Shown: positions 1,089 to 18,424 of the stretch, in pieces
How the letters are laid out: each line of letters starts with the position of its first letter
Position numbering within the stretch: the stretch's first letter is position 1
From: a virus
DNA length: 58,366 bases
Virus genome (UHGV): UHGV-1376262
Strand: one strand, 5' to 3'
Made by a program: the position numbers and the translations under genes
The notes under the pieces: generated by a model
What the model was told of the DNA's origin: nothing
The model's input: the letters and a program-made list of their open reading frames with translations, nothing else
Databases searched by the model: none

Positions 1089-1865
1089 TCAAATGTATTT
1101 TTTAATAACTTTTAAATCCTCTTCTAAACGGCGTGCCTTAGCTCCAAGGAAGATAGCTTGATTATTGATTCTTCTTGCCTTATTCTCAAGTCTGACAACG
1201 TCTAAACGAAGTCTCCACACAACCTTCTCAATCTCTTTTGAAATATCCTGTGAAAAAGGATTTACTACTTCGTCTAAGTAAGCCTCTAAGAGGTTTAAAT
1301 CTCTTTCAAGACGTCCTTCTTTATTTCTAAGTTTTCCAATCTGTTTATGGATTCTATCACGCTTTTGGAATAAGTGTAATTGATCCTTGTTAAGACGTTC
1401 AACATCTTTCTCTAAACGTTCGACAAGTTTTGCTGGATTCTCTGTTGAAGGCTCTAGGTAAACTGGCTCAAAGATTGTTCCAAACTTTTCAAAGTCTTCA
1501 ATAAAGTATTCAGGAGAAGGGCTAAAGCGAGGGTCTCCTTCCTCATCAATAATGCTCATAGCATAGTCCCCATAATGGATTTCATAATTCTTTCCTTCAC
1601 GCCACCAAACAGAGGCTCCACCATCATTAACACAGTGTAAATGGGTGGGGTTTTTAGAAGTATCAGCTACAATCATTTCAGGAGACCATTGCCACATAGA
1701 GTCTTCTTCAATATGAAATCTTCCACTAGAGTTGTAAACAGACTTTACTCTCACAGGCTTTCCACAAAACCTTGACATAGTGTTATTAAAGTCTAATCCT
1801 CCGTATACTACACCAACCTTTAAGTCTTCTCTAATAGTTACCACATCGCCTGCTTTAATATTCAA
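1089..1865 (-). CDS. Hypothetical protein. Its N-terminal about 65 aa contains a W-x-WSPEMI motif; the C-terminal part is a long coiled coil.
   Basis: ORF track. The N-terminal domain is paralogous to that of ORF 2314..2700. Confidence 0.55.
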   Translation of the reverse strand: MNIKAGDVVTIREDLKVGVVYGGLDFNNTMSRFCGKPVRVKSVYNSSGRFHIEEDSMWQWSPEMIVADTSKNPTHLHCVNDGGASVWWREGKNYEIHYGDYAMSIIDEEGDPRFSPSPEYFIEDFEKFGTIFEPVYLEPSTENPAKLVERLEKDVERLNKDQLHLFQKRDRIHKQIGKLRNKEGRLERDLNLLEAYLDEVVNPFSQDISKEIEKVVWRLRLDVVRLENKARRINNQAIFLGAKARRLEEDLKVIKKYI

Positions 1866-2312
1866 TTAAGCTTCCTCCCATTCAAATTTAACCTCAGCAT
1901 TTTTTAAAAATATTTCCGTCTCTTCCTTTTCTCTAGGAGAGAACCTTTTAGCATGTTTATCACTAAAGGTTATACTAAGGGTAGTTTCTTTCTCTAGGTC
2001 GCCCCAATTCCTTGTGGTGATTGAATTATAGTGTTTAATACGTTTGCCCCCAATAATTAAATAAAACTTCTTATCCATTCGCTCCTCGTAAGGAGTTTCA
2101 GCGAAGGCTTCGATGAGCTTAATAACTTTCTGCATGTGGATTGCTTTTATAACTCCATGCCAGGTAAAATCAACTTTACCTGTATCGCTTATACGTGCGA
2201 TTCCAGAATTTATGCCTAGACTAGACTCTACACAAACTTCATTGAAATCACCCGTGCTAACAGTTAGGTAATCTACCTTTTCAATCTCTTTCTTAAACTC
2301 TTTGTAATTCAT
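1866..2312 (-). CDS. Hypothetical protein.
   Basis: ORF track. Its stop is adjacent to the start of the neighbouring gene. Confidence 0.5.
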   Translation of the reverse strand: MNYKEFKKEIEKVDYLTVSTGDFNEVCVESSLGINSGIARISDTGKVDFTWHGVIKAIHMQKVIKLIEAFAETPYEERMDKKFYLIIGGKRIKHYNSITTRNWGDLEKETTLSITFSDKHAKRFSPREKEETEIFLKNAEVKFEWEEA

Positions 2313-2313
2313 A

Positions 2314-2700
2314 TTAATCTACCTCCCTAACGTAGCAAACATCAATGTTAGACACATTTCCAAGTACCTCATTAAACTCATCTAAAAACTGACCACAAGC
2401 ATTTTCATAAGCGTAATCATCATCAAGCACTGTTTGGGTTGATGTTCTGACATACGTGTCATACTGGTATCGGTAACCCACTTCTAAAGTAATCATGGAA
2501 GAAGTTTCCTCAATCATTTCTGGACTCCATAGCCATTCGCTTCCTTTAAGGAACATCTTACCTCCTATAATAGTCTCAATTTCAAAGACATGTCCTCGGT
2601 CAGGTAACATTTCTGGTAAAACTAAAAGATTATCTTTTCCATATTGACCTACTTCCAAGTCTTTCCTAACCTTTACTTTATCGCCTACTCTAAAACTCAT
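2314..2700 (-). CDS. Hypothetical protein with an N-terminal WSPEMI-motif domain. Start refined to MSFRVGDKVKV.
   Basis: ORF track 2314..2778. It shares the motif GDxVxxRxDLxVG...WxWSPEMI with 1089..1865. Confidence 0.5.
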   Translation of the reverse strand: MSFRVGDKVKVRKDLEVGQYGKDNLLVLPEMLPDRGHVFEIETIIGGKMFLKGSEWLWSPEMIEETSSMITLEVGYRYQYDTYVRTSTQTVLDDDYAYENACGQFLDEFNEVLGNVSNIDVCYVREVD

Positions 2701-2701
2701 T

Positions 2702-3091
2702 CTAAAACTCTCCTTCCAAAAGGATATATAATGAATCATTTTTAAAGTCTGGTGCAAACTCTCGAACAACCCTATCATGGTAAGGCTTCAATTGCTCTGA
2801 GTAATAGTTTTCTGAAACTATTTTAGTTGCCTTATCCTCAAAGATAACTTCTAGGTTTACACTAAAGTCTTCCGTAAGCTTATCTAAAAGCACTGCTAAA
2901 GTAAGCTCTGTAGGCGTTCCTACTTCTTCAAATTCAAATTGCCAGTTACTTATGAAGTAATATGGTCTATTCTCGTTGACATAAATGTAAACACCGTCAA
3001 ATACTTCACCTTTAATTAAGTAAGGTCTTCCTAGCTCCAAATACTCTTCCTCCCTAACATCTAATGCACGTATTCTAGCATATCTCTTCAC
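2702..3091 (-). CDS. Hypothetical protein. Probable GTG start after an AAGGAGG RBS.
   Basis: ORF track 2702..3172. The track's N-terminal extension actually translates the promoter/terminator hairpin at 3128..3160. Confidence 0.45.
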   Translation of the reverse strand: MKRYARIRALDVREEEYLELGRPYLIKGEVFDGVYIYVNENRPYYFISNWQFEFEEVGTPTELTLAVLLDKLTEDFSVNLEVIFEDKATKIVSENYYSEQLKPYHDRVVREFAPDFKNDSLYILLEGEF

Positions 3092-10345: not shown

Positions 10346-10570
10346 CTATCTATTGCGGCTCTTTTCAAAGTCGTTTAAAACTTTCTCAGCGTCTTCTAAC
10401 ATCTTCTGGTGAATCAGTAACTCCATTTTTAAAGCGTCAGTATATCCTAAAGAATACTCTCCTGTTGGGGTTCCAATTCGCTCAATACTTTCTTTAATGA
10501 GCTTTACTGTAGTCTCTTCATAACGAATCTTGTCTCTAAGCTTATTCGTATAAGTGGAATAGTAGGTCAT
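10346..10570 (-). CDS. Hypothetical protein.
   Basis: ORF track. Confidence 0.45.
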   Translation of the reverse strand: MTYYSTYTNKLRDKIRYEETTVKLIKESIERIGTPTGEYSLGYTDALKMELLIHQKMLEDAEKVLNDFEKSRNR

Positions 10571-10800
10571 TAAATGCCTCCTTTTGAAAGCTCATCTATG
10601 AGGATATTGTTGATTTCTAAGTTGTCACTTGGAACCATTACCTCAGTAGAATCTTCTGAGAGAGTCATATAGTAAATATCTCCACTAAGTGTATCATAAT
10701 AAACCGAACTATAGTAATCATCAAACTTCCCTATAATCAAATAGAAAAGAGAGTCGTCAGGAAACTTCCAAAAGGTTCCTACGTCTTTTGTTAACACCAT
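10570..10800 (-). CDS. Hypothetical protein.
   Basis: ORF track. Confidence 0.45.
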   Translation of the reverse strand: MVLTKDVGTFWKFPDDSLFYLIIGKFDDYYSSVYYDTLSGDIYYMTLSEDSTEVMVPSDNLEINNILIDELSKGGI

Positions 10801-15417: not shown

Positions 15418-15836
15418 TATAAATCCTCACCATACCCTCTGACTTCATTGATAATAGCTTTTACTTCTTCTGGTGTCCCTACTGTAAGGTAATCTAAAAA
15501 GTAGTCAGAAGGCTTTGCTACGTTTACTGAATAAGGTTTATTCTCATCGTACATGTGTCCGAATCCATTTAGAGAGTGAGTTACATGGACTTTCCAACCA
15601 TTGCTAAATACCATGTTAAATACTACTTGAGTATCATTCAAACCAACTTCTTCGTAAGGGTCTTCTAACTGCTCTCTTAGACCATTAATAACTTCTGCAA
15701 CCTTATTCTGATTGTCTATACGTTGCTCATACGGAAGCTTATTTAAATCTAGGTTTACATCAACCAAGTCTTTAATCCACTTTAAATTCACTTTATGCTT
15801 CCTCCTCCTCTTCATACATATCCCAAGCGTCTCCAT
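15417..15836 (-). CDS. Hypothetical protein.
   Basis: ORF track. Confidence 0.45.
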   Translation of the reverse strand: METLGICMKRRRKHKVNLKWIKDLVDVNLDLNKLPYEQRIDNQNKVAEVINGLREQLEDPYEEVGLNDTQVVFNMVFSNGWKVHVTHSLNGFGHMYDENKPYSVNVAKPSDYFLDYLTVGTPEEVKAIINEVRGYGEDL

Positions 15837-15941
15837 ATCCTGACCAATTGTCTACTCCAGCAGCTTCCAAAGCATTTAGAAATGCCTCTGCCTTCAATAG
15901 CCTTTCGTACTCACTATATGAAATCGTTACTGCTTCTTGCA

Positions 15942-16283
15942 TTACTTAACAGCCTCCTTAATATCTTTTAATGCTTTCAAATACCCAACAATATAGTCTA
16001 GTGTAACAGTCTCTCCACCATATTCAGGATTATCCCATAGGCTGCACTCAAGATTATTTGAATAGTAGTCTAATACTTCTTCTGGACTCATTCTATGAAT
16101 ATTGTAATCTTTGATAACAACCGTTTCATCTCTGGATTCTGAATCCATTGGCAACACTTCCATAATATGGTCTCCGAGAGCGCTAGTCCACTCTCCAACA
16201 ATCTCTACAACTTCGTCTTCAAGAACCGTTCCTCCATAGTGCCTACAAACATAGTTTACCTTAGATATTCCTAAACTCTTCAT
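15942..16283 (-). CDS. Hypothetical protein.
   Basis: ORF track. Promoter at 16300..16345. Confidence 0.45.
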   Translation of the reverse strand: MKSLGISKVNYVCRHYGGTVLEDEVVEIVGEWTSALGDHIMEVLPMDSESRDETVVIKDYNIHRMSPEEVLDYYSNNLECSLWDNPEYGGETVTLDYIVGYLKALKDIKEAVK

Positions 16284-16299
16284 AAAACCTCTCCTCTAA

Positions 16300-16345
16300 C
16301 TCTTTGATGAATTAACTATAACCTTTATTAAATGGTTTGTCAAGT
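16300..16345 (-). promoter_or_regulatory. Sigma-A promoter: TTGACA, 17 nt spacer, TATAGT.
   Basis: Reverse complement reads cacTTGACAaaccatttaataaaggtTATAGT. Confidence 0.55.
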
Positions 16346-16367
16346 GTTTTTATAAATGTTTTAAACA

Positions 16368-16400
16368 AAAAAAGAACAGCCCTGTTAAAGGCTGCTCTAA
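16368..16400 (-). terminator. Rho-independent terminator ending the tRNA island transcript.
   Basis: Reverse complement GAGCAGCCtttaacagGGCTGTTC followed by TTTTTTTG. Confidence 0.55.
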
Positions 16401-16479
16401 AAGAAAGAAAGAAATAATAATTTGAAAGAGGTATTCCTCATGCTAAAGGAAAGTAGTTACTAGGCTTACTAGAAGCCAA

Positions 16480-16553
16480 TACGAGGTAGCGGACTCGAAC
16501 CGCTAACCGACAGCTTAGAAGGCTGTTGCTCTTTCCAGTTGAGCTAACCTCGT
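16480..16553 (-). tRNA. tRNA-Arg, anticodon TCT.
   Basis: Manually folded 74-nt cloverleaf. Acceptor ACGAGGT/ACCTCGT is a perfect 7 bp. D stem GCTC/GAGC. Anticodon stem ACAGC/GCTGT with loop CTTCTAA. T arm AGCGG-TTCGAGT-CCGCT. No encoded CCA. Confidence 0.8.
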
Positions 16554-16566
16554 GGAAAACGTATTT

Positions 16567-16680
16567 CTAACGCTTTCTGTTTTTGCGTCTACGAGCAGCT
16601 TCTTCTTTCTTGCGTGCTGCTTCTTGTTCCGCTTTTAAGATCGCTTTGTTCCATGCTTTTTCGTTGGCTCGTTTATCCAT
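16567..16680 (-). CDS. 37-aa highly basic mini-protein (MDKRANEKAWNKAILKAEQEAARKKEEAARRRKNRKR). It lies inside the tRNA island.
   Basis: A GGAGG RBS sits 8 nt upstream of the ATG. It fell below the ORF-track size cutoff. Lies between the tRNA-Ser-side structured region and tRNA-Arg. Confidence 0.45.
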   Translation of the reverse strand: MDKRANEKAWNKAILKAEQEAARKKEEAARRRKNRKR

Positions 16681-17157
16681 TAACAAAACCTCCAATAGTT
16701 TTTATGCAGAGGAGAGGATTTGCACCTCTCAACAAGAGCATTTTACTTGTCTACCTGTTAACTAGGCTGCTCTCAGCACATTCTGTTACCTATTCCGTCA
16801 CTCTGCTGGCGTTAGCAACTTGCCTTTTTCAGCGACTTCACTTAGGGAAGCTACTCTGGTCGCCTATGCTAAACTCTTGGAGCGACTCCCTAAAGTCTTT
16901 TACCAAGAGTCTGGATTTGTTTTACAGCCCATACACCAGTCGTTCGATGAGCCAACAACCTTTAGTAATGGTGGTTGAAATCCATCACCAAGACGTCTCT
17001 TGGATTCCTCCGCTCCTAGTCGTTCTAGCACGCTACGGATTAAGCTTTACAGTAAAGGATTATTGAGTGTTCCCTTTACCAACCTCTTCTTCACACTGCA
17101 TAAAAGCACGTTACGTTTCTTTTCACTTTTATACAGCCCTACTGAGGAATTATGTAA

Positions 17158-17244
17158 CCGAGGAGGAGGGACTCGAACCCCCAAACGCTTTTACACGCCT
17201 ATCGGTTTTCAAGACCGAAGCTTTTCCAGTTATGATACTCCCCG
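17158..17244 (-). tRNA. tRNA-Ser, anticodon TGA. Class II with a long variable arm and a weak D stem.
   Basis: Anticodon arm TCGGT-CTTGAAA-ACCGA. Variable arm TAGGCGTGTAAAAGCGTTT. T arm GGGGG-TTCGAGT-CCCTC. Acceptor CGGGGAG/CTCCTCG. The layout closely parallels B. subtilis tRNA-Ser. The D stem pairs poorly, so it may be a pseudo-tRNA. Confidence 0.55.
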
Positions 17245-17484
17245 AAAACGTGTGAATAAACTCGATGAACTGCTACTGAACGCCTAACCTGAGTTCAATC
17301 TGGCTGCGCAAAGACGCTCGTAGAATCCATCGGGAATACTCACACACGCCCCCCAAGCATGGGTAAACGCGTTACAGCAAACCGAAGTAATACTGCCTTA
17401 GTGGGCGCTCTTGGATTTGCACCAAGGAACCTTTCGGAACGGTTTTACAGACCGCCTGCTTTAACTACTTGCATAAACGCCCAA

Positions 17485-17556
17485 CAAGCTGTGAAGGAAT
17501 CGAACCCTCTCTAACAGTTTTGGAGACTGTTGTGCTAACCATTACACTAACAACTC
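17485..17556 (-). tRNA. tRNA-Trp, anticodon CCA.
   Basis: 72-nt cloverleaf. Anticodon arm ACAGT-CTCCAAA-ACTGT. D arm GTGT-AATGGTTA-GCAC. T arm GAGGG-TTCGATT-CCTTC. Acceptor GAGTTGT/ACAGCTT with two G-U pairs. Confidence 0.65.
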
Positions 17557-17729
17557 ATCTGGCACACAGGAAGCAGACACCACTTGAGCGTTGAGTAGGT
17601 CTTCCTCAAAAAGTCCTCTCTAAAGCTTTGTTCAAGGCTAGCTAAGGTGCAGGTGTTTTTCCTCTAAGCTACCTGTGTGCTTATATCAACTAGGAGCATT
17701 TTCTTTAACGTCGATATTGCCCTTCGACC

Positions 17730-17775
17730 AGCTCTATAGTAATATTACCACATCTTAAAGCATTTGTCAAGTCGT
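17730..17775 (-). promoter_or_regulatory. Strong early promoter driving the tRNA/ncRNA island: TTGACA, 17 nt spacer, TAATAT.
   Basis: Reverse complement reads aaaaagttttaaaaacgacTTGACAaatgctttaagatgtggTAATAT. It points into 17725 down to 16400. Confidence 0.55.
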
Positions 17776-17787
17776 TTTTAAAACTTT

Positions 17788-17988
17788 TTAACGACCCTTT
17801 ATCTTAGCATAGTTAAAACTCATTTGGATAAGCTTCTTGTTGCCATGTTCATCTTGGATAAAAGCATGTCTTGGCTTGTTTGGAATAGTTTCCACAACGA
17901 CATACTCTCCGCCTCTGATAACGCTATTGTTGGCACATATATTGCCTTGATAAATTACTGTATCGCCTACGTAAAAACGGCTATAATC
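17788..17988 (-). CDS. Hypothetical protein. Start refined to MDYSRFYV.
   Basis: ORF track 17788..18123. The long version overlaps the upstream gene by 143 nt. Confidence 0.4.
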   Translation of the reverse strand, partial: DYSRFYVGDTVIYQGNICANNSVIRGGEYVVVETIPNKPRHAFIQDEHGNKKLIQMSFNYAKIKGR

Positions 17989-18424
17989 CATCTTCGCAAT
18001 AGCTCCATTCAAAGTCTTCAATAACGCCTTTGTCAATCGACTTAGTAATAGCTTCTTTATCAGCTGTGAACTTGTACTCTGAGTGGTATACGCCAGTGCT
18101 TCTTTGAAATAGTTCATCAACAACTACATCAAAGATTGGACTAACAGCTATTTCAACAGAAGCTTCAAGGGGGCTTAATCCGTTAAAGTCTTGGATAATG
18201 TTAGCAGAAGCAAACCACAAGCCTTCTTTGATTACTTCTTCAAGCTTTTCTCCTAAAGGCTTATCAATTTCTGATTCTTCCCAGTCGTCAGCATAGTATG
18301 TGAAAGCCCAACCATCGCCTGTAACACCTTCTTCTGTAAGGTATTTCAAAGAGGCGTAGGCAGTGATTTTAGCAAGCTCCATTTTAACAGGTACAGTAAT
18401 TTCTGATGTATCCATGTTATTCAC
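17981..18424 (-). CDS. Hypothetical protein.
   Basis: ORF track. Confidence 0.45.
   Translation of the reverse strand: MNNMDTSEITVPVKMELAKITAYASLKYLTEEGVTGDGWAFTYYADDWEESEIDKPLGEKLEEVIKEGLWFASANIIQDFNGLSPLEASVEIAVSPIFDVVVDELFQRSTGVYHSEYKFTADKEAITKSIDKGVIEDFEWSYCEDGL

Follow-up and report, generated by a model that had tools for sequence, protein, structure and literature searches.

The virus genome UHGV-1376262, a stretch of 58,366 nucleotides (nt) that we call the window, carries between positions 16,284 and 17,787 a gene-poor island, the body of which very probably encodes a selected, structured, non-coding RNA. The segment 16705..17156 is a divergent copy of a structured RNA family of 350-450 nt that occurs in Saphexavirus, a genus of Enterococcus phages. 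That this genus has a structured RNA with transfer RNA (tRNA)-like handles, not represented in Rfam, is a new result. The invariant parts of the unit in which this RNA lies are tRNA-Trp, a small peptide gene and the structured RNA itself with its tRNA or tRNA-like brackets. We consider it fairly likely that the unit as a whole is a tRNA-punctuated precursor, from which cuts by RNase P and RNase Z would release stable phage RNA.

A structured RNA in Saphexavirus-type phages

Matches to the island come from phages of this genus (SAP6, VD13, BC611, IMEEF1 and others), with at most 37% of it covered by any one record. In annotated relatives, tRNA-Trp, sometimes accompanied by tRNA-Tyr and tRNA-Ser, and an open reading frame (ORF) of 41 amino acids (aa) are followed by 0.5-0.8 kilobases (kb) that are left blank; some records fill this gap with inconsistent mini-ORFs, a 99-nt 'tRNA-Arg', a 126-nt 'tRNA-Lys' or a 'tRNA-Pseudo'. 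When the promoter-to-terminator islands of 19 relatives were aligned, the gap proved to be a single unit that begins with a 5' tRNA-like element and a core, continues through variable hairpins into a conserved 3' half, and closes with a 3' tRNA-like element, after which come a small hairpin and the terminator. The 5' tRNA-like element consists of a D-arm, a long aberrant 'anticodon' arm and a T-arm (GGGGTTCGAATCC), and scores 16.8 bits on the Rfam tRNA model. The 3' tRNA-like element has an acceptor stem of 7 base pairs (bp), four of them covarying, a 13-bp arm and a T-arm (GGCGGTTCGATTCC). The mid-section of the unit is occupied by differing hairpins, with 0, 46 or 46+70 extra nt depending on the phage. 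The structured RNA was present in all 21 distinct Saphexavirus-type island sequences examined.

Covariation was assessed on the 19 distinct relatives. RNAalifold predicted 129 pairs, 13 of which are changed on both sides and yet remain paired. Taken alone, such counts are not decisive, since the structure was derived from the alignment used to score it. In the same alignment 99.1% of the cells pair and 35 cells carry double changes, a number reached by none of 500 shuffles, and in slid controls, with the partners moved by 1-3 columns, only 0-2 double-change pairs were left. Pairing is also specific to the strand: the helix cells contain 288 G-U pairs against 3 A-C pairs, and the consensus energy is -115.4 kcal/mol in the sense and -92.6 kcal/mol in the antisense direction, the antisense being poorer in every block. 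Among the relatives, identity reaches 97.1% in the 5' tRNA-like element, 95.0% in the core and 92.2% in the 3' half of the body, compared with 90.0% in tRNA-Trp and 88.5% in the neighbouring gene for a 66-aa protein. By these identities, the structured RNA is at least as conserved as tRNA-Trp and appears to be under purifying selection.

Two longer-range contacts were considered and are not claimed. A pseudoknot between a loop and the GGAGCGGAG motif (CGCUC with GAGCG) meets an uncompensated loop change, CACUC, in the window, and a long-range helix proposed by RNAalifold between the D-region of the 5' tRNA-like element and AUUAGCC shows no covariation and cannot form in the window.

A far-diverged copy in the window

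The most recognizable part of the copy in the window is the core block, 17156..17008, the 149 nt that follow tRNA-Ser. It is found in 71 phage records with 80-99% identity, of which 61 reach 90% or more, and is almost never annotated there. Compared with the relatives, the core of the window is 87-95% identical. Identity to the nearest phages is far lower, 77-80% across about 40% of the sequence, in 22 kb taken from elsewhere in the window, which marks the phage as a divergent member of the Saphexavirus group. Helices 7 and 8 of the core contain compensatory pairs, and a whole-hairpin swap and 1-nt indels occur among the relatives. Beyond the core the primary sequence is no longer recognizable: the mid-section has no sequence match, the 312 nt after the core block gave no BLAST match anywhere, and an exact-word scan of IMG/VR with the window-specific body was empty.

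To the 3' half, a covariance model could be applied. The model (R1) was built from the 3' half of the 19 relatives, with the window left out, and was run unfiltered over the 58 kb on both strands. The best match, 16923..16807 on the minus strand, scored 31.1 bits (E ~1e-5) and the next 17 bits; this second match (10561..10689, minus strand, 17.2 bits, E ~0.02) contains several non-canonical pairs and is probably noise. Helix H2, which is CGCUGUU/AACAGCG in the relatives, has become CUCUUGG/CCAAGAG in the window, and re-pairing is also seen in H3 and H4. The window retains the loop UUAGGG and the conserved box AGAGUAGCU(U)CCCUA(A)GUGAAGUC, which is enclosed by H4. With the window added to the R1 alignment, 98.7% of the cells are paired and 10 of 31 pairs are changed on both sides, against 1.7 expected from shuffles, although the alignment of the window was fitted to R1, which favours the pair count; the match found by the R1 search itself was not fitted. 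None of 500 shuffles reached 10, and the slid controls gave 1-3 pairs. For the entire segment of 453 nt, the fold has z = -3.0.

At the 3' end of the body, a putative tRNA-like element of 102 nt (16705..16806) is located exactly at the junction that the 3' tRNA-like element takes in the relatives. Its centroid fold shows an acceptor stem (GCAGAG/CUCUGC), an internal arm and a T-arm (GAGAGG-UGCAAAU-CCUCUC). A search of the window with a second model (R2), built from the relatives' 3' tRNA-like element, returned only marginal matches, which were the T-arms of true tRNAs.

An unlikely alternative holds that the island is a tRNA graveyard, that is, a decaying tRNA array with pseudogene pieces and non-functional spacer riding along with useful tRNAs. 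Several features invite this view: the unit contains defective tRNA-derived elements, such as a leader without a T-arm and the 5' tRNA-like element with its low score on the Rfam model, tRNA-Tyr and tRNA-Ser are flagged 'pseudo' in the record of one relative, and the module content differs between phages. Decay would not, however, be expected to leave the supposed junk more identical among relatives (97%, 95% and 92%) than tRNA-Trp (90%) or the flanking gene (88.5%), nor the core at 87-95% in a phage that is about 78% identical genome-wide. Compensating changes keep the helices, even in the far-diverged copy of the window, and the body occurs in every relative examined, whereas tRNA-Tyr, tRNA-Ser and tRNA-Arg are optional. 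We retain the reading of the body as a selected, structured RNA.

Coding capacity of the island

The only protein gene of the unit is the 37-aa ORF that an earlier interpretation of the window from its letters (hereafter the sequence-only reading) had picked out. The ORF is real: its ATG start at 16680 lies behind a GGAGG (16693..16689), its stop is at 16567, and it has a match (E = 2.6e-08) to phrog_13247, a family without an assigned function. The ORF has no Pfam match, and tblastn with the peptide, a short query of low complexity, returned nothing. At the nucleotide level it matches the 41-aa ORF of the relatives, which has a different position: the small ORF stands after the structured RNA in the window, and right after the tRNAs and before the structured RNA in the relatives.

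It is very improbable that the remainder of the island consists of hidden genes, small proteins that were missed or inconsistently called. Some records do annotate ORFs of 30-63 aa on either strand of the homologous region, and the window itself contains a 150-aa ORF with a GTG start on the plus strand (16614..17066). The ORFs of different records disagree, however, in position and strand, and no consistent protein gene emerged from the homologous stretch in those annotated relatives whose records were examined. No frame is open across all 19 relatives, the common stop-free stretch on the sense strand being at most 37 codons. Indels of 1, 46 and 70 nt fall within or between the most conserved blocks, and whole hairpins are exchanged between phages. 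The 150-aa ORF is leucine-rich, is not conserved in the relatives, and runs on the strand opposite to both the structured RNA and the conserved gene for 37 aa; although a gene caller might annotate it, it has the look of an artefact. A structured non-coding RNA remains the reading we prefer for this stretch.

Bounds and composition of the unit

The sequence-only reading had described a protein-poor island with an early promoter at 17730..17775 pointing into it, a terminator at 16368..16400, three tRNAs (Trp, Ser and Arg), a 37-aa ORF and about 700 nt left unaccounted for. The island, the promoter, the terminator and the ORF stand; the count of three tRNAs and the bounds of the unexplained stretches do not. 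The promoter is recovered as a sigma-70-like sequence at 17770..17742 on the minus strand, with 10 of 12 hexamer positions fitting the sigma-70-type consensus in a consensus scan. The terminator hairpin at 16398..16373, followed by a T-run, is the sole terminator-like site in 15800..18300. Together they delimit about 1.37 kb on the minus strand, on which all genes here lie (Table 1). The three named tRNAs are present, and a fourth, tRNA-Tyr(GTA) at 17401..17482, had been missed; it lies in 17250..17484, one of the stretches listed as unexplained. A leftover is confirmed and comes to about 790 nt after the four tRNAs and the ORF are subtracted, in a leader (17558..17735), a spacer (17246..17400) and the segment 16696..17156. 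All three are variants of non-coding modules common to Saphexavirus-type Enterococcus phages. The tRNAs themselves make up only 319 nt of the unit.

Table 1. Predicted features of the RNA unit, listed in the order of transcription.
Feature	Position	Strand	Basis or description
Promoter	17742..17770	minus	-35 TTGACA, 17-nt spacer, TG-extended -10 TAATAT; consensus scan
Leader ('module A')	17558..17735	minus	Conserved 5' hairpin region and degenerate tRNA-derived element; BLAST to relatives' leaders
tRNA-Trp(CCA)	17484..17557	minus	ARAGORN; Rfam 60.1 bits
tRNA-Tyr(GTA)	17401..17482	minus	Long variable arm; ARAGORN; Rfam 49 bits
Spacer head ('module B' homolog)	17343..17400	minus	Two hairpins (UUCG and AUGCUU-type loops); model R3
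Long, very stable hairpin	17250..17345	minus	Unique to this phage; fold of 155-nt spacer
tRNA-Ser(TGA)	17157..17245	minus	Class II; ARAGORN; Rfam 40 bits
Core block	17008..17156	minus	Variable hairpin, hairpin with loop GAACRCUCAAUAAUCC, hairpin UCCGUAGCGU...ACGACUAGGA, GGAGCGGAG motif
Variable mid-section	16924..17007	minus	Hairpins; fold; relatives' hairpins differ
3' half	16807..16923	minus	Nested helices H2 and H3 (loop UUAGGG), H4, H5; model R1
Putative 3' tRNA-like element	16705..16806	minus	Centroid fold and equivalent position
37-aa ORF	16567..16680	minus	Lys/Arg/Glu-rich; ATG 16680; ribosome-binding site GGAGG 16693..16689; phrog_13247
tRNA-Arg(TCT)	16480..16553	minus	ARAGORN; Rfam 68 bits
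Trailer hairpin	16459..16479	minus	TTGGCTTCTAGTAAGCC; aligned with TTGGCTGTTTATCAGC in all relatives
Intrinsic terminator	16363..16398	minus	11-bp stem, 4-nt loop, T-run; hairpin 16398..16373; conserved in all relatives

A promoter of the TTGACAAA type heads the homologous unit in every relative. The same motif is repeated at the starts of successive short operons of this region in all the phages, including 16343..16315 and 17770..17742 of the window and the related loci; the former, on the minus strand, is the next promoter and serves the following genes. This recurrence suggests a set of near-consensus, host-type early promoters.

The presence of a strong promoter that feeds the region also belongs to what may be said for a DNA-level element, a cis site (for instance an origin of transcription-primed replication, or a hotspot of recombination) placed just upstream of replication genes, in which RNA structure would be incidental. 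The next downstream genes of the relatives include a RecBCD inhibitor and a primase, and recombination joints fall within T-arm sequences common to tRNAs and tRNA-like elements. We give this explanation only a small chance, as the strand-specific pairing, with its excess of G-U over A-C and a better sense fold in every block, is that of an RNA and not of duplex DNA or cruciforms. Neither iterons nor an AT-rich unwinding block are present in the island, where G+C is instead raised (0.44-0.51, against about 0.37 outside), and the unit closes with its own terminator. These properties agree with our reading of the body as RNA.

The gene upstream of the promoter deserves a remark. The ORF at 17788..18123 (minus strand, 111 aa, TTG start) is probably over-extended: its match to phrog_7571 covers residues 45-109 only, and in the relatives a protein of 66 aa is annotated. 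Translation is likely to begin with the ATG at 17991, which gives an 11-nt overlap with the end of the preceding ORF at 17981. In KEN03 (locus L011, 414..929) and EF-P29 (locus L019, 1..198), a gene for an HNH homing endonuclease stands one to two genes upstream of the island promoter and is missing in some other relatives, a presence/absence pattern that fits heavy module shuffling around and inside the island.

Four tRNAs and the slots they occupy

A tRNA was called canonical if it had an ARAGORN cloverleaf, an Rfam tRNA score above the gathering score of 29 bits and a 7-nt anticodon loop. All four tRNAs qualify, tRNA-Tyr having surfaced in the sensitive mode of Rfam only, and none of the four encodes its CCA end. 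Relaxed and organellar ARAGORN runs (-ps80, -ps70 with introns, -mt) proposed extra tRNAs that were weak, mutually inconsistent and never on a conserved module. Across the genus the number of tRNAs varies from 1 to 4: tRNA-Trp was found in every relative examined, and Tyr, Ser and Arg are optional, tRNA-Arg receiving no ARAGORN call in the ten relatives scanned. The tRNA-Tyr and tRNA-Ser of the window are 98% and 100% identical, respectively, to the copies in CCS2 and Ef7.1; the Ef7.1 record labels its tRNA-Tyr 'tRNA-Pseudo-GTA'.

The T-loop of tRNA-Tyr, UGCAAAU, has a G at the usual position of U55, a base that is near-universal in T-loops, and the same loop occurs in the putative 3' tRNA-like element (16718..16724). 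The Tyr and Ser genes are labelled 'pseudo' in records of relatives, so that these two tRNAs may or may not be charged and used.

For the tRNA set, the sequence-only reading had suggested codon supply or the replacement of tRNAs cut by host nucleases. Codon usage of the phage is compatible with codon supply, AGA being the commonest Arg codon (40%) and UCA accounting for 23% of the Ser codons. Codon bias cannot explain tRNA-Trp, the sole universal tRNA, since it reads a single codon.

Two of the tRNAs stand where the relatives have tRNA-like elements. tRNA-Ser immediately precedes the structured RNA, in the slot that the 5' tRNA-like element has in the relatives. The final 25 nt of the gene (17181..17157) can be aligned to the 3' end of that element, which places a rearrangement joint inside the T-arm and acceptor. 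tRNA-Arg occupies the slot of the 3' tRNA-like element, just before the trailer hairpin; both its T-arm and the ATTGGCT...AGCC hairpin that follows can be aligned to that element and the trailer in the relatives. The boundary positions of the structured RNA are thus taken by real tRNAs in the window, its own tRNA-like copies being weakly supported.

Leader and spacer modules

The leaders of the genus are assembled from interchangeable modules, and some phages are leaderless. By BLAST, 17770..17483 of the window is 79% identical to the leader of one relative (locus L010) and 17770..17632 is 84% identical to that of BC611. In the intact module A element of BC611 (locus L002, 1610..1708), a 39-nt insert stands in for the anticodon arm, and yet the Rfam tRNA score, 38.3 bits, exceeds the gathering score. 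The element in the leader of the window (17562..17680) keeps a 9-bp acceptor-like stem (GCACACAGG / CCTGTGTGC) and a variable-arm hairpin and, by comparison of the leaders, is without a T-arm. Neither this element nor 16705..16806 gave an Rfam tRNA match at E <=10 or a default ARAGORN call, and neither is a canonical tRNA as defined above; they are tRNA-derived or tRNA-like elements, not tRNAs. The sequence-only reading had taken the gene-poor stretch for one early RNA transcription unit that might hold further non-canonical or pseudo-tRNAs or a small RNA; sensitive searches with nothing beyond three tRNAs to show would have counted against it. More was found, and tRNA-Tyr, the degenerate leader element and the covariation-backed structured RNA support the suggestion.

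The spacer between tRNA-Tyr and tRNA-Ser measures 155 nt in the window, where the two genes of the relatives sit 1 nt apart. Its head is homologous to module B, which is the leader in many relatives: a covariance model (R3), for which the first two module B hairpins of the relatives were used and the window was left out, matched 17343..17403 with 36.8 bits (E ~6e-10), the next-best match in the window scoring 10 bits. The stems of the spacer head are re-paired by compensating changes and the loops are kept. The spacer folds at -59.8 kcal/mol, against -41.7 +/- 3.8 kcal/mol for shuffles (z = -4.8), and none of 200 shuffles was as good. This excess of 4.8 standard deviations is due to the long hairpin formed by the remaining 96 nt, for which no match was found in the phage collection and from which an exact 22-mer is absent in IMG/VR. 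Folding stability is not counted as evidence for the leader or module B.

Distribution and database searches

A search of IMG/VR with two conserved motifs returned Saphexavirus-type contigs only, and a search with the flanking proteins returned only six loci. Two further metagenome contigs that surfaced in the motif scan were dismissed as chance, the match being a 24-nt word inside a 365-aa ORF; these contigs have neither tRNAs nor similarity around the word. No true match was obtained in bacterial genomes. An apparent one, CP121462.1 (locus L030, 'Prescottella defluvii strain SampleD3_15 plasmid unnamed4', 24,796 bp, 39.8% G+C), shares up to 96% identity with Enterococcus phage KEN03 in the RNA island and the sequences on either side, and is almost certainly Saphexavirus DNA mis-assigned in assembly. 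The same island is present in PP848412.1, PV874195.1 and HE962497.1, records titled 'Escherichia phage vb_EcoB_G21-7', 'Enterobacter phage BHUENT5' and 'Streptococcus phage SP-QS1', respectively, whose host labels look doubtful; the G21-7 record is flagged UNVERIFIED_ORG. Full-text literature searches found no RNA element described in Saphexavirus-type phages.

A scan of the entire window against Rfam 15 at gathering scores returned tRNAs only. Sensitive cmscan runs (E <=10) were made on 16100..17950 of the window, 1100..2600 of KEN03 (locus L011) and 1500..2830 of BC611 (locus L002). None of the three contained a line for ROOL (RF03087) or GOLLD (RF01998), and 6S RNA, RNase P RNA, signal recognition particle RNA, Y-RNA-like RNAs, T-boxes, group I and II introns and riboswitches gave no Rfam 15 match near the gathering score. 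The lines for the L20 leader, suhB/mmgR and sbrA were merely the terminator hairpin with its T-run, and those for U7, small nucleolar RNAs and RalA were noise far below the gathering scores. Transfer-messenger RNA (tmRNA) was not called by ARAGORN in the window or in ten relatives, and Rfam offered only a 17-nt fragment of beta_tmRNA at 7.9 bits.

These searches bear on the explanation to which we give the least credit of all, that the body is a far-diverged ROOL, GOLLD or tmRNA. The setting is indeed the same, a phage-encoded, multi-helix RNA of several hundred nt beside tRNAs, and the tRNA-like ends recall tmRNA. Yet no ROOL, GOLLD or credible tmRNA match appeared at E <=10 in the window or in the islands of the two relatives, and ARAGORN found no tmRNA. 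In tmRNA the tRNA-like part is built from the two ends of the RNA; the 3' tRNA-like element described here is self-contained and closes on itself. We treat the body as a structured RNA distinct from these families.

Proposed processing and comparison with known systems

RNase P cuts the 5' ends of tRNAs, and in Firmicutes such as Bacillus subtilis the precursors of CCA-less tRNAs are matured by an endonucleolytic cut of RNase Z after the discriminator base. Given these cutting rules, and with no CCA encoded by any of the four tRNAs, every tRNA or tRNA-like element of the unit would act as punctuation. In the model we favour, a host sigma-70 promoter would drive one early transcript of about 1.37 kb, from ~17735 to ~16365 on the minus strand. 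It would string together the four CCA-less tRNAs, tRNA-derived elements without a decoding arm, the peptide mRNA and the structured RNA, 17156..16705. Host RNase P would cleave each tRNA and tRNA-like element on its 5' side and RNase Z on its 3' side, so that the tRNAs, the mRNA of the peptide and the structured RNA would be set free with defined termini. For the structured RNA, the 5' terminus would come from RNase Z cleavage behind tRNA-Ser and the 3' terminus from cleavage at 16806..16705 or at tRNA-Arg, which would also detach the peptide mRNA. The released RNA would then act in trans as a stable phage RNA, by analogy with T4 RNAC and RNAD, ROOL and GOLLD.

Several points weigh against this model, besides the circularity of the pair count already mentioned. 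The single transcript and its 'early' timing are predicted from consensus promoter and terminator matches only, and processing by RNase P and RNase Z and the stability of the products are equally matters of prediction. Covariation is confined to local helices, the predicted long-range helices showing none, and the diversity of the relatives is low (mean identity 91.5%), most predicted pairs never varying. The fold of the leader is not significant (z = -0.8), neither the leader nor module B folds better than shuffled sequences, and the leader element of the window, being without a T-arm, may perhaps be a poor substrate for RNase P and RNase Z. The putative element at 16705..16806 is weakly supported (z = -1.3, no significant R2 match and no Rfam tRNA match). 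Finally, modules are shuffled, lost or swapped among phages and the leader is missing in some, so that not every module can be essential.

ROOL and GOLLD lie beside phage tRNA islands and have no known function, and GOLLD can carry tRNAs in a linker (PMC5737381; 10.1101/2024.12.08.627333). The Saphexavirus RNA resembles them in being phage-encoded, several hundred nt long and rich in helices, and in its position next to or between tRNA genes, with which it is probably co-transcribed. Its genomic setting is likewise theirs, a lytic phage with tRNAs immediately 5' and 3', a context that does not by itself amount to membership. It differs in that neither Rfam model detects a match in its sequence or structure, in being restricted to one genus of lytic Enterococcus phages where ROOL and GOLLD occur in several phyla, and in being bracketed by dedicated tRNA-like elements. 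Neither the pseudoknots nor the multimeric assembly of ROOL and GOLLD is claimed for it.

The RNAC and RNAD of phage T4, about 120-140 nt long, are co-transcribed and co-processed with tRNAs. Encoded in the T4 tRNA cluster, they are stable RNAs of unknown function and are classed as late RNAs (PMC9697503). The likeness lies in a phage tRNA cluster with non-tRNA RNAs, and only this genomic arrangement is comparable; RNAC and RNAD are much smaller, late, and belong to another host and phage lineage.

For punctuation of this kind the closest parallels are eukaryotic. Plant mitochondrial t-elements direct RNase P and RNase Z cuts that define the termini of RNAs (PMC1920247), and MALAT1 and mascRNA show a similar arrangement (PMC8457004). 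As in those systems, non-canonical cloverleaves with an acceptor and a GGTTCRANYCC T-arm stand at the ends of other RNAs, and both parts are found at the RNA boundary in the relatives. The eukaryotic and organellar cases have been tested experimentally, whereas here processing is deduced from structure and position only; compared with t-elements, moreover, the copies in the window are degenerate, the leader having lost its T-arm and the putative 3' element having the T-loop UGCAAAU.

For ordinary phage tRNA clusters, such as those of T5 and mycobacteriophages, two roles have been put forward, codon supply and the replacement of tRNAs under attack by host defences. The island shares with them four bona fide tRNA genes, of which tRNA-Arg(UCU) reads the most-used Arg codon of the phage; it differs in that the genus-wide constant is tRNA-Trp with the structured RNA and not the tRNA set.

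That this RNA of 350-630 nt with tRNA-like handles represents a new class of large, structured, trans-acting phage RNA, the Saphexavirus counterpart of ROOL and GOLLD, is a tentative proposal in which we place limited confidence. In one version, the tRNA-mimicking ends could engage RNase P and RNase Z, the CCA-adding enzyme, T-loop modifiers or tRNA-directed defence nucleases, and could serve as a decoy or a scaffold. The structured RNA might also form a ribonucleoprotein with the Arg/Lys-rich peptide of 37-41 aa, which is always encoded within the unit.

Significance for Saphexavirus biology

The RNA described here adds an example to the small set of large phage RNAs in tRNA islands, which includes ROOL, GOLLD and T4 RNAC and RNAD, and corrects the annotation of about 70 public genomes. 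Saphexaviruses are among the phages most often isolated for therapy of Enterococcus faecalis. The system is tractable, with an easily grown host, lytic phages and natural variants in the form of module swaps, hairpin swaps and the far-diverged copy of the window. Within the genus, the unit provides a bacterial-virus candidate for tRNA-punctuated processing of a non-tRNA RNA.

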